Virus record (IMG/VR): IMGVR_UViG_2695420478_000008
DNA length: 5,548 nt
Strand: one strand, 5' to 3'
Source: a virus
Lineage: Duplodnaviria; Heunggongvirae; Uroviricota; Caudoviricetes
A model generated the notes under the pieces. The model was not told where the DNA came from, searched no databases, and saw nothing but the letters and a program-made list of their open reading frames with translations. Shown here in pieces: positions 1 through 5,548 of the stretch; position 1 is the stretch's first letter, and each line of letters opens with the position of its first letter. The translations under genes were made by a program, and so were the position numbers.

Positions 1-22
1 GGGATTCAGGGGGTGACGTGTC

Positions 23-763
23 ATGAAAAACATTGCGGCAGTTGGGGTTCTTGAACGTATTCGCAGACTTGCACCACAGGGGTCGGTTCCACCGTACCGT
101 ACGGTGGCGGAGTGGCGGGAATGGCAGCTTGCTGAAGGGCGTAAGCGCAGCGAGGAGGTTAATCGTCTGAATCATCAGACGCGGGTTGAAAAAATTATTA
201 ACCGCTCCGGTATCCAGCTGCTTCACCGGAAGTGTACGTTCGGTAACTACCGGGTGCAGAACGATGGTCAGCGCCATGCCCTGAGTCAGGCGAAATCCAT
301 TGCGGCAGAGCTGGAAGGCGGCTGTACGAATTTTGTTTTCAGTGGCAGGCCTGGCACAGGAAAAAACCACCTGGCGGCGGCTATTGGCAACCACCTTCTG
401 GCGAAAGGTCGCAGTGTGATTGTGATAACAGTGGCGGATGTGATGCTGGCGTTACATGGCAGCTACGACAACAAAAACTCGGGCGAAAAATTTTTGCAGG
501 GATTGTGTGGCGTTGACCTGCTGGTACTGGATGAAATTGGCATGCAACGGGATACGCGTAATGAGCAGGTCACGCTGAATCAGATTGTTGACCGCAGAAC
601 GGCATCGTTACTCAGTGTGGGGATGCTGACAAATCTTAACCATGCAGCGATGAATACACTTCTCGGCGAGCGGGTGATGGACCGCATGTCCATGAACGGT
701 GGTCGCTGGGTGACGTTTAACTGGGAGAGTTGGCGTCCGAACGTCAGCCAGCACAGGAACTGA
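23..763 (+). CDS. DnaC-like replicative helicase loader (AAA+ ATPase, DnaC/IstB family), prophage-encoded
   Basis: 246 aa, near-collinear with E. coli DnaC (245 aa) as recalled from memory. Walker [17 protein letters not shown] is at about nt 341-388 and Walker [10 protein letters not shown] at about nt 515-541. Conserved stretches include NRSGI, FxNYRV, ITVADx[22 protein letters not shown] and FNW. The in-frame stop at 14-16 just upstream suggests a preceding gene ends at the window edge. Confidence 0.9.
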
Positions 764-792
764 GAAGTAATTTTTATCCGGAGGAAGTTTTA

Positions 793-1563
793 ATGGAAAC
801 CGTATTGCATGCACTGAAAGCGATGGGTAAAGCCAATTCTGTTGAACTGGCGGCGCGGCTTGATATCAGCCGTGAAGAAGTTCTCAACGAACTGTGGGAA
901 CTCAAAGAAAATGGCGTTGTTGATAAAACGGGTCACACCTGGTTTCTGGCTGGTGAAGGTGAATCCGGGGTAACCGAAGAACAGCCAGCACAGTCTGAAG
1001 TACCGGATGTGCTGACCGGGGAGGTCGAACAAAAAGTTACCGCGGACATGATGATTGAGTTTATCTGTCAGGATGGGGCTAAAACGTGTGAGGAACTGGC
1101 GGATAAGTTCGGTGTTAGCATTCGCAAGGTTGCTTCCACGTTGGCGGTCGTAACAGCAACGGGGCGCCTGGCACGCGTAAATCAGAACGGTAAATTTCGT
1201 TACTGCATGCCGGGCGATAATTTACCAGCAGAGCCGAAAGCCGCGCTGGTAACGGAAAGTGATGGTAAGGCCTTTCCTCAGCCAGCAGGTGCTGCGTTAC
1301 CAGGCCGGGAAGCCGCAACACAGGAAGAAATTAAAACAGAAACTGTGGCGGACATTGTGCAGTCGTTGCCATCGTTTACCGAAACGCAAGCAGATGAGCT
1401 GATTTTTCCGTCCCTGCGCAGGGCAAACCTGGCGCTGCGCAGGGCGAAAAGTGATGTTCAGAAGTGGGAGCGAGTCTGCGCCGCGCTGCGGGAGCTGAAC
1501 AAGCACCGGGATATTGTTCGACAGATTACTGATTCTTCCCGCCGTGTTGTATCGGAAAAGTGA
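793..1563 (+). CDS. Hypothetical prophage protein with two N-terminal winged-helix-like modules
   Basis: ATG at 793 is preceded by GGAGGAA (780-786). The track ORF begins at 730 but that would overlap the end of the DnaC-like gene and has no RBS. Residues ~1-55 and ~95-150 both show the pattern hydrophobic helix, ELA..hG.S, hydrophobic, then G...G.hF, typical of wHTH DNA-binding domains. The C-terminal region is charged and helical. Confidence 0.6.
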
Positions 1564-1578
1564 TTGCCGGAGGCGCTT

Positions 1579-2001
1579 ATGGCAAAAGTATTTACACAAG
1601 AAGAGCGGGAAAAAATTAAGGGGCAGGTTGTTGAACTCGTGCGCCAGAATGGGCGCGAGACGTTACGACAACTTGAAGCTAAGACAGGTGCGACAAGATA
1701 TTTAATGAGCGTTCTCGCCAGAGAGCTGGTTGCCAGTGGCGATGTATATAACTCCGGCTACGGGCTATTTCCCTCTGAACAGGCTCGTAAGGACTGGCAA
1801 AACGCCCGCAAAAAACTCTCAAGGGCAAAGCTGAAGAAACCATCTGCGGTTGATCCGGACCTTATCTGGTCATTACCAGATGGCGAAATACGCCGCTACG
1901 ACAGGCGTCTGAACATAATCTGTCTCGAGTGCCGGAAGAGCGAAGTTATGCAGCGCGTACTGGCGTTTTATCAGGGGAATTTTGAGGAGGTGGTGCGGTG
2001 A
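1579..2001 (+). CDS. Hypothetical prophage protein with a winged-helix-like N-terminus
   Basis: ATG at 1579 with GGAGG (1568-1572) 6 nt upstream. The track start at 1564 is a TTG directly abutting the preceding stop. The N-terminal VVELVRQNGRETLRQLEAKTGATRYLMSVLARELVASGDV resembles the wHTH modules of the preceding gene. The stop overlaps the next start. Confidence 0.55.
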   Translation: MAKVFTQEEREKIKGQVVELVRQNGRETLRQLEAKTGATRYLMSVLARELVASGDVYNSGYGLFPSEQARKDWQNARKKLSRAKLKKPSAVDPDLIWSLPDGEIRRYDRRLNIICLECRKSEVMQRVLAFYQGNFEEVVR

Positions 2002-2252
2002 GTGAATCAAAATGCCAGGTTAATGGCAACAAGATAGAACCATGTGCAGCACTGGCAAAGTCCCTTGAGCATGATGCTGAATACACGATGCGAAAAGGTC
2101 TGCTGATATACAAAATCTGGAATGAGAGTTTAACTCGCGGTCCTGATTTTGTGATGTTGCGTTCCGGTGAATTTTCTAAATTACCAGTTCGGGTTTCATT
2201 TTGTCCGTTCTGTGGTGAAAGTCTGAAAACGTGGGAGAACAGAAATGAATGA
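1998..2252 (+). CDS. Small hypothetical protein with a Cys4 zinc-ribbon-like arrangement
   Basis: GTG start at 1998 overlaps the upstream stop (GTGA), with GAGGAGG (1984-1990) as RBS. Cysteines are spaced C-x9-C near the N-terminus and C-x2-C (CPFCG) near the C-terminus. 84 aa. Confidence 0.55.
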   Translation: MSESKCQVNGNKIEPCAALAKSLEHDAEYTMRKGLLIYKIWNESLTRGPDFVMLRSGEFSKLPVRVSFCPFCGESLKTWENRNE

Positions 2253-2556
2253 AATTAAAGAAATACCAGTAGTACGTGATGAATATGGCTGCTGGACGCA
2301 TCCTGAATATGAAAAATTCTGTGACGGTCGGGAATATATTTCAACGGAAGAGTTTAACGCCTGGATGGAGGAAAATAATCTTCAATACGTCCTCTGCTTC
2401 AGAGATGAAGGATGTGCTGACCTTGATGCGTGTGATGCTGATATTTCTGCATGGGAACCGGAACGACCAGAGGGCAATGGATGGTTTATTGGTTCAATAC
2501 ATGACACCGAAGATGGCCCGGTTTGTGTATGGCTGAGAAATAAGGCCGAAGCATAA
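2245..2556 (+). CDS. Small, highly acidic, Cys-rich hypothetical protein
   Basis: ATG at 2245 overlaps the end of the preceding gene by 8 nt, with GGGAGA (2232-2237) as RBS. 103 aa with about 25 D/E versus 8 K/R (counted by hand, net about -17), 6 Cys and several Trp. Confidence 0.6.
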   Translation: MNEIKEIPVVRDEYGCWTHPEYEKFCDGREYISTEEFNAWMEENNLQYVLCFRDEGCADLDACDADISAWEPERPEGNGWFIGSIHDTEDGPVCVWLRNKAEA

Positions 2557-2587
2557 AGGCTATAAACCGACTAACAACTAAATACTG

Positions 2588-2622
2588 AGGATTTAAATCA
2601 GAAACGATTTTTATTAAATCCT
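2588..2622. repeat. Perfect 9-bp inverted repeat AGGATTTAA / TTAAATCCT separated by 17 nt, in the intergenic region upstream of Q
   Basis: Read directly: 2588-2596 AGGATTTAA and 2614-2622 TTAAATCCT are exact reverse complements. No U-tract follows on either strand, so it is more likely a protein-binding site or RNA structure than an intrinsic terminator. Confidence 0.35.
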
Positions 2623-2688
2623 TAACCGGAGGGATTCCTGCACCCTCAAATCATCAGGAGGCCGCCAGAAAGGGCGGTGGAGATAATA

Positions 2689-3210
2689 ATGGGAATAACT
2701 AAAGAACGATTGTTGGAAATAGCAAACCTTAGTGATTGGGCATTAAGTGATGAGAGAATTGTTTCTCCTCATGCTTATGAGTCAGTTACAAGTATAGAAA
2801 TAACAACAATGGCTAGAATGCTGCTTGGTTATTTCAAAATAGAAAATAAAAAACAGATGGATAGTAATGTTGATATATGTGAGATTTTAGACGATTGGGG
2901 GGCTTGGGTTGTGGCTGGTAATAGTTCTATTGATTGGCAGGAAATAGCTGATAAATATAAAAATGTTGTTCCTCATGGTAAAAAATCACGTCGTCAGTGC
3001 AGCAATGATGAAGGGCGAATTATTGACATTAGTATCCTTAGGTTAGAAAGATATAAGCAACAAGAATATGAGTTAATTGTTGCTCATTTCGTGATTGGTT
3101 TATCTCTTCGTGCTATTGCAAAGCAACAAGGATGTTCAGATGGAACAATTCGTAAAAGATTGCAAAAAGCCTTAGGTTTTTTGACTGGATATATAGCAAT
3201 TACCAGTTAA
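2689..3210 (+). CDS. Late-gene antitermination protein Q homologue (QuuD-like Phage_antitermQ family) with an N-terminal extension of about 55 aa
   Basis: The C-terminal two thirds match my recollection of E. coli DLP12 QuuD: LDDWGAW, KSRRQCSNDEGRI and the C-terminal GCSDGTIRKRLQKALGFL (QuuD has CCSDGYIGKRLQKAEG). The start is uncertain: ATG 2689 has GGAG 6 nt upstream and is preferred, GTG 2677 is the track start, and ATG 2857 would give a QuuD-length protein but lacks an RBS. Confidence 0.7.
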   Translation: MGITKERLLEIANLSDWALSDERIVSPHAYESVTSIEITTMARMLLGYFKIENKKQMDSNVDICEILDDWGAWVVAGNSSIDWQEIADKYKNVVPHGKKSRRQCSNDEGRIIDISILRLERYKQQEYELIVAHFVIGLSLRAIAKQQGCSDGTIRKRLQKALGFLTGYIAITS

Positions 3211-3848
3211 GAGTCAGCGGTTTTTTTACCAGTGTAATGGTATAAGGATACTCCCATGTGTCTTACATGATATGGAAGCGCTGTTGCTGGATGCTTTGTG
3301 ATACTCTTAAAGCGGAGGGGAGAGCCTTCCGCTTCAATTTCTGCGTCCGAAACGGTCGTAGAGAAAAATTCTTTCCATTCATTGAATTTTACTGCTGATT
3401 TGTCAGACTTTATATAAATTAGAATTCCTCCATGATCGTCACGTGACGTACCCGTGCCGTAACGTTCGGTTAGCTGAATCCAGCCATTATGAATAGATTT
3501 GGGGCCTCTCCATAATTTTGCTTCACCGATCCATTCGAATTTTCCGAATTGATGTTTAACTAATAAATCAACGTGACCGCCATGTTGAGTATCATGTTCA
3601 ACATCATAAAACCTACCTTTCAGGAAATTTTTGATCGACGCTGTTAGCTCGTCCTCTCCCCACTTAGCATCTTGATAGAAGTGTTTGTCATTTTCTAAAT
3701 TCTGAATAGCGTCGTCTAAATCTTCATAGAGTTGCTTTACAAAAATATTTTTGTCTGCAGCTAATTTTCTTTGAACCATTCCCCTAAATTCAGGATCCAT
3801 TCTAATTAATGATTGAAGGTCTGCAGTACAGATGTTTACATCACTCAT
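3207..3848 (-). CDS. Hypothetical protein, third gene of the cargo operon; putative PD-(D/E)xK-type nuclease
   Basis: ATG at 3848-3846 is preceded by GGAGAG and overlaps the stop of the upstream gene (ATGAGTGA). The track's longer ORF to 3911 would overlap the upstream gene by about 70 nt. 213 aa. The motif ...EDELTASIKNFLKG...HGGHVDLLVKHQFGKFEWIGEAKLW has E65/E67, D94 and E109-A-K111 with spacing typical of PD-(D/E)xK nucleases. The fold assignment is inference. Confidence 0.6.
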   Translation of the reverse strand: MSDVNICTADLQSLIRMDPEFRGMVQRKLAADKNIFVKQLYEDLDDAIQNLENDKHFYQDAKWGEDELTASIKNFLKGRFYDVEHDTQHGGHVDLLVKHQFGKFEWIGEAKLWRGPKSIHNGWIQLTERYGTGTSRDDHGGILIYIKSDKSAVKFNEWKEFFSTTVSDAEIEAEGSPLRFKSITKHPATALPYHVRHMGVSLYHYTGKKTADS

Positions 3849-4269
3849 GCAGACTCTCCAAAAGACTCGAAGGAGTAAAGTATGGATAAAGATACTGGCT
3901 AAAATTATCAACCAATTCGCCAGTTTCTGGATGGTAAAAACTTCCTGTGTCTAAAGCATAGGAAATAAGATCATCTTCAACTGGTATTGGTTCTTCCGTT
4001 AAATTATCAATGTATTGAAAATGCATATCCAATAGATGTGCTTTATAGCTAGATAAATAATCAGTTGCTTTTATTAGCAGGATATAGTCATCTTTCGTAT
4101 CAGTTAGATAGGTTAAACCATTGATAAGGGTTTTGTATGTAAAGTGATTGATATTTTTAGCATCTTTACTAACCAGAAAAAGAAAAAGATCACGACACAC
4201 ACTGCGAACAGGATCATTAAAATCCTGCTCTATTTGCGTGATAATGTCGTGATATATACTCTTTTTCAT
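3841..4269 (-). CDS. Hypothetical acidic, Tyr-rich protein, middle gene of the cargo operon
   Basis: 142 aa. The ATG at 4269-4267 overlaps the stop of the upstream gene (ATGA) and its own stop overlaps the next start, indicating translational coupling. No recognisable catalytic motif. Confidence 0.6.
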   Translation of the reverse strand: MKKSIYHDIITQIEQDFNDPVRSVCRDLFLFLVSKDAKNINHFTYKTLINGLTYLTDTKDDYILLIKATDYLSSYKAHLLDMHFQYIDNLTEEPIPVEDDLISYALDTGSFYHPETGELVDNFSQYLYPYFTPSSLLESLHE

Positions 4270-5357
4270 TTATGGCCTGATGATCTCGCTCTTCTTTTCT
4301 CTTCACAGGACTTAACAGAATCCAATATTTTTTCAACAATAAATATAATCGAATCAATGTTGTTACAGTTCTTCGCAATTGCTTCATGCAACCTAATTCT
4401 AGGATTATCAAGCATTGTCCTTTTTCCTGGTAATATTAACTCTACTGATAAAATATGTGAAGAACTTTGTGGTAAATCCCAAATTTTTCCCAACTTAAAC
4501 TTTGTCAATATTGGGCTTGCGGACTCTCCACTATGATGGTAAACATCTTGACGCAAACACTTTTGACTTGGTTTGAGTTTTAAAGAACTTGTATTGCCAT
4601 CTGAGGTGATAAAAGATACATGAGAAATTCTGCCATCTACTTTTTCGTAAAGATCTTGTATTGAACCAAATAATTCAAGAGGATTGTTTAAAATAACGCC
4701 AGCTTCTTTTTTTATAAATTTAGCCACAAGGTATTGTTGAGGCTGTGATTCACTTCTTGGAAGGATAGATAAATCAATCGTAAGAATTAATATTTTTTCT
4801 GCAGGCATTAGCATGATGGTATTAAAGCATTGCGTGACTTGGCGTGTTTTGCATTTTATTTCTCCACCATTAGCACGTAATTCCATACCCGCATCGCTAA
4901 GATGTGTTGGGTCAAGCTCTATCACTTCAGTGTAATACGCTTTGGATAAAAAAACAGCAGTGTCAATTTGTTTATCACGAATGATATCTTGACGTAGTTC
5001 AGCAAAATGCAGCTCAGTATCAGCAACTAACAGCTCCTCTCTGGATAAAGGAGTTGGGTATTTTTCTGAGAAGGGGCTATTGTCCTTTTTCTGATTTGTG
5101 AAAATTGTTTGTAATTTTGCTACGTCTTCATCGGTGATTCTATAAATAGAAAGTAATCGATTCCCGCTAAAAATTAAACCTTTCCAGAAATCGTCGATTC
5201 TGTCTTTTAGGTCGGGATTATGCTGAACTACACTATTTACACGTTCAATAAAAAGGGGTAATCCTTGGGCCGTTACACCCAGTGATGAACCAAGAAGCTT
5301 ACGGGTGTTGCGCCAGCCAAAGCGTGAATTGATGTTTTTTACTGTTTGCTCAAGCAT
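4266..5357 (-). CDS. Hypothetical protein, first and largest gene of the cargo operon; function unknown
   Basis: ATG at 5357-5355 is preceded by a strong SD, AAGGAAG (5370-5364), with 6-nt spacing; the track start is the GTG two codons upstream at 5363. 363 aa, with no P-loop, no GS...DxD nucleotidyltransferase motif and no reverse-transcriptase YxDD motif visible. The C-terminus is basic (KRRARSSGHK). Confidence 0.65.
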   Translation of the reverse strand: MLEQTVKNINSRFGWRNTRKLLGSSLGVTAQGLPLFIERVNSVVQHNPDLKDRIDDFWKGLIFSGNRLLSIYRITDEDVAKLQTIFTNQKKDNSPFSEKYPTPLSREELLVADTELHFAELRQDIIRDKQIDTAVFLSKAYYTEVIELDPTHLSDAGMELRANGGEIKCKTRQVTQCFNTIMLMPAEKILILTIDLSILPRSESQPQQYLVAKFIKKEAGVILNNPLELFGSIQDLYEKVDGRISHVSFITSDGNTSSLKLKPSQKCLRQDVYHHSGESASPILTKFKLGKIWDLPQSSSHILSVELILPGKRTMLDNPRIRLHEAIAKNCNNIDSIIFIVEKILDSVKSCEEKRRARSSGHK

Positions 5358-5410
5358 TAACACTTCCTTAATTTTCCCTTAACAATTTAGGGTGCTAAAC
5401 TTTTTTGCGC

Positions 5411-5440
5411 AGTTTACATAAAAAAATAGTGCGTACGCAA
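5411..5440 (-). promoter_or_regulatory. Candidate sigma70 promoter for the minus-strand operon: -35 TTGCGT (5440-5435), 18-bp spacer, -10 TAAACT (5416-5411)
   Basis: Hexamers read by eye on the reverse complement. An A/T-rich tract lies between them and the perfect palindrome GCGTACGC (5431-5438) overlaps the -35. The predicted transcript start would be about 45-50 nt upstream of the ATG. Not experimentally supported. Confidence 0.25.
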
Positions 5441-5508
5441 AAACTATCTAAGGAAGGTGCGAATAAGCAGGTCATTTCTTCCCAAGCTGACTCGCTGATT
5501 AAAATTTC

Positions 5509-5530
5509 TCGGATCTGGGCCGATTTTTTT
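5509..5530 (+). terminator. Weak candidate intrinsic terminator on the plus strand: 4-bp stem TCGG/CCGA, 7-nt loop, then T7 tract
   Basis: Read directly: tcgg (5509-5512), atctggg, ccga (5520-5523), followed by ttttttt (5524-5530). The stem is short and so predicted stability is low. Confidence 0.2.
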
Positions 5531-5548
5531 CCCGCAAACACATCGAAT

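Follow-up and report, generated by a model that had tools for sequence, protein, structure and literature searches.

Three adjacent minus-strand genes (A, B and C) in the 5,548-nucleotide stretch of DNA analysed here (the window) are supported by comparison of related loci as one conserved mobile module found in prophages, plasmids and islands. We regard this trio as a mobile conflict module and most likely as an anti-phage defence system, a reading held with middling confidence, in which a DNA-clamp sensor would be combined with a regulated nuclease effector. The coordinates of the three genes and of the features surrounding them are given in Table 1.

Table 1. Features in and around the three-gene block (positions are those of the window).
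Feature	Position	Strand	Details	Assignment
Gene A	4266–5357	minus	363 aa, ATG start	RdgC-like-fold protein (structure model), unnamed family; proposed DNA-binding sensor
Gene B	3841–4269	minus	142 aa	Small acidic soluble protein; proposed regulator/inhibitor of C
Gene C	3207–3848	minus	213 aa, ATG start	Predicted PD-(D/E)xK (restriction-endonuclease-fold) nuclease; proposed effector
Q-like gene	2677–3210	+	Pfam Phage_antitermQ, E 9e-32	Q-family antiterminator-like gene
Remaining native operon 5' region	5358–5451	minus	RBS AAGGAAG at 5363–5369; palindrome TGCGTACGCA at 5430–5439	
IS5-family element end	5452–5548		Starts GGAAGGTGCGAATAAG after target CTAA at 5448–5451	

Sequence comparison indicates that A, B and C are genuine genes and not chance ORFs, with full-length homologues recovered down to ~20% identity. 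The three minus-strand genes put forward in the initial annotation agree in their lengths and coordinates with both the ORF list and the sequence; for gene A the program-made ORF list extends the start to a GTG at 5363, versus the ATG at 5357. The genes are coupled by overlapping codons exactly at the places that had been proposed, the stop of A and the start of B sharing ATGA (4266–4269) and the stop of B and the start of C overlapping by 8 nt in ATGAGTGA (3841–3848). Two further properties claimed for the block, its AT-richness with respect to the replication region and its orientation against phage transcription, were borne out as well. The GC content is 0.31–0.41 over positions 3150–5400, compared to 0.49–0.57 over positions 1–2100 (window composition), and the AT-rich stretch begins near 2550, so that the Q-like gene also falls inside it. 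All other long ORFs with a protein-family match are found on the plus strand (window ORF list and family scans). No RNA families were detected in the window (Rfam).

All related loci examined have the genes in the order A-B-C. Such loci were found in prophages of E. coli, Salmonella and Yersinia, in islands of Shewanella and Photobacterium, and in Moritella and Calothrix plasmids, these two plasmid loci being assigned via gene order and size only. Homologues of the three genes are co-linear even beside relatives of A at 18–25% identity (hmmsearch), and B and C overlap by 1–11 nt in all related loci except two (L022 and L062). The profile of gene A gathers at least 500 clusters at 50% identity. 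The settings are diverse, comprising a Yersinia phage that carries the module, a Shewanella island in which recombinases flank it, a 19-kb Moritella plasmid where it adjoins parA, a cyanobacterial (Calothrix) plasmid and plain chromosome, where it is also intact outside phages. One copy adjoins a type ISP restriction enzyme and another lies within a toxin-antitoxin cluster with PIN, HepT, YhaV and ParE genes. Neighbours of the trio vary between loci, and the module is AT-rich compared to its flanks. The operon had been described as acquired cargo, a description that fits well with this conserved and mobile trio of prophages, plasmids and islands.

The frequency of the module was assessed in several collections. 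The variant of the window is present in 14 of 5426 complete E. coli genomes, and 12 of the same 5426 have a second E. coli variant. In an assembly collection, the index lists the exact A protein for 2925 blocks and a Salmonella relative for 2006. A scan of genome contigs returned a single locus. Sequenced phage genomes (tblastn) gave two weak Acinetobacter matches and nothing else, which indicates that the module is absent from that phage-genome collection.

The Q-like gene is convergent with C, overlaps its stop by 4 nt, and shares 34–38% identity with the Q genes that Salmonella and E. coli prophages have next to C. The mosaic unit common to the E. coli copies spans 2613/2619–5451. In the loci of Yersinia, Shewanella and Photobacterium and in those on plasmids, no Q-like gene was called beside the trio. 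The Q-like gene is co-inherited with the trio in lambdoid prophages, yet lies outside the core module. Between the block and the late genes, this prophage lineage has hokD, DUF968, rusA and a second antiterminator (Q), which places the block in the nin region and not in the Stx slot; the Q-family gene adjoining the block is not the Q that precedes the lysis genes. The Stx-type slot downstream of Q, named in the initial annotation, is therefore not right for this lineage, but relatives of the block in prophages of Salmonella and in others of E. coli are indeed found between Q and holin.

The last gene had been noted as nuclease-like, and its structure model shows a restriction-endonuclease-like core fold (alpha-beta-beta-beta-alpha-beta), in good agreement with that suggestion. 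Across 39 C homologues, residues E65, D94, E109, K111 and Q125 do not vary; they map in the model to helix 65–78, strand 91–98, strand 105–112 and helix 116–130, the catalytic E ... D ... ExK pattern being present on the core helix and strands. By modelled fold and invariant residues, C is predicted to be a PD-(D/E)xK nuclease. Its closest folds are the restriction enzymes BstYI, BamHI, OkrAI and BglII together with McrC, and it resembles a series of defence or toxin nucleases (McrC, CdiA-CT, HamA, NucC, Can2 and Shedu). A domain-level match to PDC-S54, an unvalidated PADLOC defence candidate, was obtained for 30 of the 39 C-family members, with E-values of 0.0016 for the window protein and 7.5e-11 for the best relative. 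It spans ~295–353 of the 410 profile positions (~60 positions), from which it follows that only the nuclease core is shared. The trio nuclease was rejected as a full PDC-S54, having no full-length match to this single-protein profile. Pfam gave nothing for the window protein, and three of the 39 family members touch PDDEXK_9 (E ~0.01). PDB sequence/profile searches yielded no credible match, those of C to Rab GTPases being judged spurious.

The fold neighbours of C also bear on an improbable alternative, a methylase-free restriction system of type IV or McrBC-like kind, in which A as a sliding clamp would read a modification or structure and recruit C to foreign DNA, the host being spared. Besides restriction enzymes and McrC being nearest to C, the DNA-ring fold modelled for A would suit such a system, and so would the fact that a methyltransferase is part of the module in none of the loci (neither the window nor the conserved unit has a cognate methyltransferase in the trio or next to it). 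However, the trio lacks the NTPase or translocase of McrBC and most type IV enzymes, no modification-reading domain of a known type was detected in A, and the role of B would be left without explanation.

The structure model of A shows an RdgC-like fold. Compared with E. coli RdgC (PDB 2owl), the fold type is shared at 10% identity, whereas A has 60 additional residues and, in the model, an added helical bundle at the N-terminus, and its gene heads an operon that includes a nuclease gene, RdgC being a stand-alone chromosomal gene. In sequence, A gave no Pfam match to the RdgC family model (window protein, 30 close and 94 distant relatives), and the hhalign probability was 1.4% when the 94-sequence profile was compared with E. 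coli RdgC and 0.2% against RexA, which was likewise missing from the top structural hits of the A model. Nothing usable was obtained in NCBIfam (window protein) or PADLOC (window protein and 94 distant relatives), and only scattered matches at chance level appeared. The initial annotation had found no motif that could be placed in the first two proteins, which stands for the sequence scans, none of which gave a usable match, but not for the structure of A, given its modelled fold. From this fold we infer that A is a DNA binder. RexA, with an RdgC-related fold, is a non-specific DNA binder (PMC11077077), and a role in exclusion has been suggested for RdgC homologues of lambdoid phages (PMC12315714); the literature on RdgC and phage defence yielded only the RexA structure paper and this remark. 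Conservation in the A superfamily is highest at polar residues (D195, R269, H274, Y237 and Q176), which hints at a catalytic or ligand-binding role beyond what the model accounts for, and several of them fall in its least confident loop.

RdgC has a known role in recombination; such a role would suit a function in phage DNA metabolism, an observation that weighs against the defence reading. An accessory of this kind, with an RdgC-like modulator of RecA-type recombination and a structure-specific nuclease serving prophage replication, recombination or induction, seems to us quite improbable. It would be consistent with the location of the block in the nin region here, with rusA and DUF968 nearby, and with RdgC modulating RecA and RexA biasing the lambda switch (PMC11077077). 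Yet the block is transcribed against both early and late operons, its base composition is unlike that of the replication genes, it is intact outside phages, on plasmids and plain chromosome, and most related prophages are without it, as the E. coli counts above illustrate.

Protein B had been called a small acidic protein, and so it is across the family, with a pI of 4.5–5.4 in 11 of 11 homologues. It has a net charge of −13, and its hydropathy over 19 residues peaks at 0.57, so that it has no membrane helix, all hydrophobic stretches being too short. The homologues have an FYHPxTGE motif together with invariant residues. No family or PDB match was found for B (Pfam, NCBIfam, PADLOC and PDB, with 11 relatives run in Pfam). 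FMRP matches from PDB sequence/profile searches were judged spurious.

As a defence system, the trio could work as follows. The three genes would be translated together from one operon, and A would dimerise as an RdgC-like clamp on DNA, where it would report an infection-specific DNA state, e.g., foreign ends or replication/recombination intermediates. B, made just ahead of C via the overlapping codons, would keep C inactive or bridge it to A. The arrival of the signal would put an end to this restraint or bridging, and C would cut DNA as a response.

Nearly as good a fit is provided by a three-part toxin-antitoxin or addiction module, to which we give a low but appreciable probability, with C as a DNase toxin, B as an acidic antitoxin and A as a DNA-binding regulator or accessory, stabilising its carrier and with defence as a side effect at most. 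The small acidic B directly upstream of the nuclease gene, overlapping it by 8 nt, is the usual antitoxin-toxin layout, the conserved dyad preceding A could serve as an operator for autoregulation, and the company of the module points in the same direction, i.e., parA on the 19-kb plasmid, the PIN, HepT, YhaV and ParE genes, and hok, which it adjoins in E. coli. On the other hand, B and C match no known antitoxin or toxin family, and in a plain toxin-antitoxin pair one would not usually expect a first gene of 360 aa that is kept in all examined loci. Phage defence is a second function of many toxin-antitoxin modules, so that this reading overlaps with the main one and the two do not exclude each other. 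If the trio were an addiction module only, it would be a new three-part toxin-antitoxin family.

The preferred reading, anti-phage defence, was also compared with described systems. The operon had been put forward as a candidate undescribed module, and the database scans agree, since no named system was found for the trio in PADLOC 2.0, Pfam or NCBIfam. Likewise, no component matched a validated defence family. The three proteins belong to PHROGs families 12777, 11490 and 9664, all of unknown function, and literature searches on the RefSeq protein accessions (WP_000893384, WP_000748514 and WP_001380433), the PHROG numbers and PDC-S54 found nothing.

Lambda RexAB resembles the trio in being carried by lambdoid prophages, in having a second gene of ~140 aa and in the fold of the largest protein, RexA having an RdgC/Iml3/Chl4-type fold (PMC11077077) as A does in its model. 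Transcription of the trio runs against the early and late operons of the phage. RexA is thought to sense infection (PMC11077077). However, RexAB is without a third nuclease gene, RexB has four membrane helices (a RexAB-like system is listed with 4 TMs; PMC9122126) whereas B is acidic and soluble, and the trio has no sequence similarity to RexA or RexB (hhalign probability of 0.06% for B against RexB), with A and B matching no PADLOC model. The RexAB type was rejected for the trio, which has neither a RexA homologue nor a RexB-like polytopic membrane partner. C shares its modelled PD-(D/E)xK fold and catalytic residues with HamA (Hachiman), McrC, NucC, Can2 and Shedu, but the partner proteins of Hachiman, McrBC, CBASS and type III CRISPR are absent from the trio. 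Another three-gene system of E. coli prophages without recognisable domains is Rst_3HP, a P2-hotspot system described as 'hp + hp + hp' with proteins of 333, 359 and 227 aa (Rousset et al. 2022; PMC9122126), which is found in another kind of phage and at another locus. It was discarded too, the BLASTP alignment being limited to a 35-residue patch and the family-profile scores to ~0–1 bit (Table S2 sequences, PMC9122126).

If the trio defends against phage, it would be a further widespread system, carried by Salmonella prophages and by those of enteropathogenic and Shiga-toxigenic E. coli, and would connect two puzzles. RdgC is a DNA ring whose cellular role is unclear, and RexA, whose trigger is still unknown, acts as sensor in the earliest phage exclusion system to be described. 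The trio would pair the RdgC/RexA fold class with a soluble nuclease and not with a membrane protein, and a soluble partner should ease reconstitution and could make sensing directly testable. More tentatively, the trio could be the founder of a large unrecognised immune family extending from Enterobacterales to cyanobacteria, based on a clamp sensor of RdgC/RexA fold and a restriction-like nuclease. Lambda Rex would then be one branch of a broader set of clamp-sensor defences, and the trio a soluble and tractable model for the sensing of phage DNA.

Upstream of A, 94 bp of native DNA are left before the IS5-family end, and similarity between the window and E2348/69 ends at 5451. The palindrome within these 94 bp corresponds to a dyad, TGCGGACCGCA, that precedes A in relatives from Salmonella, E. 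coli and Enterobacter. The candidate promoter that had been attributed to the operon was not supported, as neither the window nor the uninterrupted copy of E2348/69 (NC_011601.1; operon with upstream region at 1437328–1439830) showed a sigma-70-like site in a consensus scan of the minus strand upstream of A. No IS junction was found in loci L001–L060, which include ~20 near-identical copies. The IS5-family insertion, which the initial annotation had overlooked, lies outside the module and may alter its expression. This IS stretch explains the matches of the window in 1892 of the 5426 E. coli genomes, and in one matching genome it adjoins an IS5-like transposase gene of the ISKpn26 family.

A re-reading of the window confirmed the overall observation of the initial annotation, placing its three linked minus-strand ORFs (A, B, and C, here the trio) and both overlaps at exactly the positions first reported. 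Read on the minus strand, A ends ...CAT AAA TGA with the ATG of B embedded (ATGA, 4266–4269), and B ends ...CAT GAG TGA with C starting ATG AGT GAT (8 nt, 3841–3848), a co-translated arrangement in which a good ribosome-binding site (AAGGAAG) lies 5 nt 5' of the ATG of A and GGAG precedes the start of C. In E2348/69, an EPEC strain carrying an uninterrupted copy of the block, the RefSeq annotation begins C at an internal ATG (window 3801–3848), giving 197 aa; this start is probably wrong, because the N-termini of homologues line up with the ATG upstream of it, which most gene calls use (213 aa). The block is AT-rich as described, with a GC content of 0.31–0.41 vs 0.49–0.57 in the replication genes, and since the AT-rich stretch sets in near 2550 it also covers the neighboring Q-like gene. 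The remaining family-matching ORFs of the window are all on the plus strand (a DnaC-like loader, DUF1627, DUF977, two small PHROG families, and the Q-family protein).

Coordinates of the main features of the window
Feature	Position	Strand	Remarks
Q-family gene	2677–3210	+	AT-rich like the trio; weak sigma-70 region 4 matches
Gene C	3207–3848 (from ATG)	-	213 aa ORF
Gene B	3841–4269	-	142 aa ORF
Gene A	4266–5357 (from ATG)	-	363 aa ORF
Palindrome TGCGTACGCA	5430–5439		73–82 nt upstream of the ATG of A
IS5-family element end	5452–5548		begins GGAAGGTGCGAATAAG; target CTAA at 5448–5451

The three genes co-occur obligately. A profile of A searched against 1.84 billion representatives retrieved at least 500 relatives at E <= 0.001 (290 at <= 1e-10); of the matches listed, those of full length measure about 335–400 aa. 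Close homologues fell into 32 (A), 7 (B), and 45 (C) clusters, every one of them unnamed. Wherever neighboring genes were visible, A was followed by a B homologue and then a C homologue, an order that held by hmmsearch with family profiles even for A relatives of only 18–25% identity (in two plasmid loci the trio was assigned from gene order and size only), and B and C overlapped by 1–11 nt in all listed loci except L022 and L062. The settings were Salmonella and E. coli lambdoid prophages, a Yersinia phage (flanked by tail genes and a giant polyvalent protein), a Shewanella island (resolvase on one side, a DUF6538 gene on the other), a Photobacterium variable region with helicases, a metagenomic prophage with hipA adjoining, an isolated islet amid metabolic genes, a site two genes from a type ISP restriction enzyme, a cluster of PIN, HepT/MNT, YhaV, and ParE genes, a 19-kb Moritella plasmid with parA adjoining, and a Calothrix plasmid. 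Such varied settings with the order and the B–C overlap kept mark the trio as an autonomous, horizontally moving functional unit, in agreement with the mobile cargo first proposed. A phage recombination accessory appears improbable, the least favored of the readings we considered, as the trio is antisense, foreign in base composition, found outside phages, and patchy among related prophages.

Neither Pfam, NCBIfam, nor PADLOC 2.0 contains the trio and PHROGs lists A, B, and C as unknown; a recent naming is possible. Brenes and Laub (2025) reportedly screened E. coli prophages functionally for defenses. Identity with Rst_3HP was rejected by sequence comparison. The trio comes closest to the lambda exclusion system Rex in its proposed sensor (A), and to Hachiman, McrBC, and Shedu in its effector (C), without being a member of any of them.

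The model of A has a predicted fold like that of RdgC, the E. coli DNA-binding ring protein. According to the paper on the RexA crystal structure, RexA shares this fold class with RdgC, Iml3, and Chl4, and all four bind DNA (PMC11077077); a 2025 survey suggests that RdgC homologues of lambdoid phages may act in exclusion in a RexA-like manner (PMC12315714). No link exists at the sequence level, where A had no Pfam match and hhalign gave 1.4% against RdgC and 0.2% against RexA; RexA was also missing from the top structural matches of the model. The residues with the strongest conservation in the A superfamily as a whole are polar (D195, R269, H274, Y237, and Q176), and the most conserved stretch, CLRxDxYHHxGExASPI (residues 261–284, window about 4506–4577), falls with its CLRxDxYHHxGE portion in the one loop that the AlphaFold model predicts with low confidence (residues 269–282; pLDDT below 50 at 269–272 and 276–282). 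This loop could be a catalytic or active site or a partner-binding site, or may become ordered only upon binding DNA, B, or C.

The third gene had been called nuclease-like, and C is indeed predicted to have a restriction-type nuclease fold with its catalytic residues. Of 39 members of the C family, 30 match the PADLOC defense candidate PDC-S54 in this nuclease core (best E 7.5e-11), over only about 60 of the 410 profile positions. B is acidic in every homologue (pI 4.5–5.4) and carries a conserved FYHPxTGE motif; family and PDB searches gave no match, and a search for membrane segments found none. A relationship to RexB was ruled out by direct comparison.

The best-supported reading, to which we give an even chance, is that the trio forms a conflict module. 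A would bind DNA as an RdgC-like clamp sensing an infection-linked DNA state, the presumed trigger; C would execute the response, and with it the presumed phenotype; and the acidic B, translated just ahead of C, would restrain or bridge it. A three-part toxin–antitoxin addiction module is a less probable alternative, given about one chance in five: the B–C layout, the resemblance of C to CdiA-CT, and the plasmid parA context all fit it, and it overlaps with defense. A methylase-free restriction system, in which the nuclease would act directly on DNA, seems rather unlikely. The interpretation in the initial annotation thus holds in part: calling the trio a nuclease-bearing mobile module of undescribed appearance is right; its defense role is unproven.

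Of 5426 complete E. coli genomes, 14 carry the block variant of the window, E2348/69 and one O145 strain among them, and an identical A protein occurs in 2925 indexed blocks of the assembly collection. All window-lineage prophages share the order DUF977, two small genes, Q-like gene, convergent C-B-A, hokD (swapped for an HTH/Peptidase_M78 gene pair in one copy), DUF968, rusA, second antiterminator (of another family than the first Q-like gene), and late genes. Because four of these elements, from hokD to the second antiterminator, come between block and late genes, the block lies in the nin region, 3–5 kb ahead of the antiterminator preceding the lysis genes, and not in the Stx slot. The placement in that slot therefore fails for this lineage and holds for relatives (~50% protein identity) in Salmonella and other E. 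coli prophages, located exactly between Q and holin and antisense to late transcription. The true toxin cargo slot is seen in L072, a prophage copy with the trio, where a gene for a pertussis-toxin-like ADP-ribosyltransferase subunit (1051–1776) lies between the second Q and holin.

The Q genes abutting C in the Salmonella and other E. coli prophages are 34–38% identical to that of the window, and E. coli copies share a mosaic unit (2613/2619–5451); Q and trio are thus carried along together in lambdoid phages. Outside these phages, gene calls put no Q beside the trio, placing Q outside the core module. In a 177-aa ORF reading, the N-terminal ~65 residues of the Q-family protein match a separate PHROG. 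Locus L001 has two Q-type genes in one prophage (11540–12061 and 16575–17264), the second from another family and ahead of the late genes, and the first Q-family gene is frameshifted in the O145 copy. Further upstream, PHROGs labels the DUF977 gene (1564–2001) a Ren-like exclusion protein, and the 84-aa ORF after it (1998–2252) is intact here but interrupted by an internal stop, and so a pseudogene, in E2348/69.

Matches to 1892 of the 5426 complete E. coli genomes come from the IS5-family end, and one of these genomes has an ISKpn26-family IS5-like transposase gene adjoining the equivalent of 5452–5548. In otherwise 99–100% identical copies similarity stops exactly at 5451, and a viral contig (L029) matches window 3–5451 at 100% identity and then runs on without the IS. 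Since the junction was missing from L001–L060, the insertion looks private to the source strain. Between it and A only 94 bp of native sequence remain, and IS5 insertions 5' of operons are able to silence or activate them. The proposed own promoter found no support, as a consensus scan of the minus strand 5' of A detected no sigma-70-like site in the window or in the intact E2348/69 copy.

Relatives from Salmonella, E. coli, and Enterobacter (L003, L023, and L015) carry TGCGGACCGCA 5' of A in place of the palindrome of the window, within a similar TTTTTGCG...GCACTA context, the changes on both arms keeping the dyad symmetry. The palindrome could be an autoregulation operator, or belong to a late promoter or a Q-binding site on the opposite strand. 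Between A and holin, the same three loci share a conserved G+C-rich hairpin, AAAACCCCGTCGAAACGAGGTTT (~7830–7870 in L003), which is missing from the window lineage and may act as a terminator or belong to the late-transcription control region. The region 5' of the trio seems to attract IS insertions, because several E. coli copies (L068–L072) bear another IS gene just past hokD, a DDE_Tnp_1 transposase (370 aa) unlike the IS5 one, ~700–1800 nt upstream of A.
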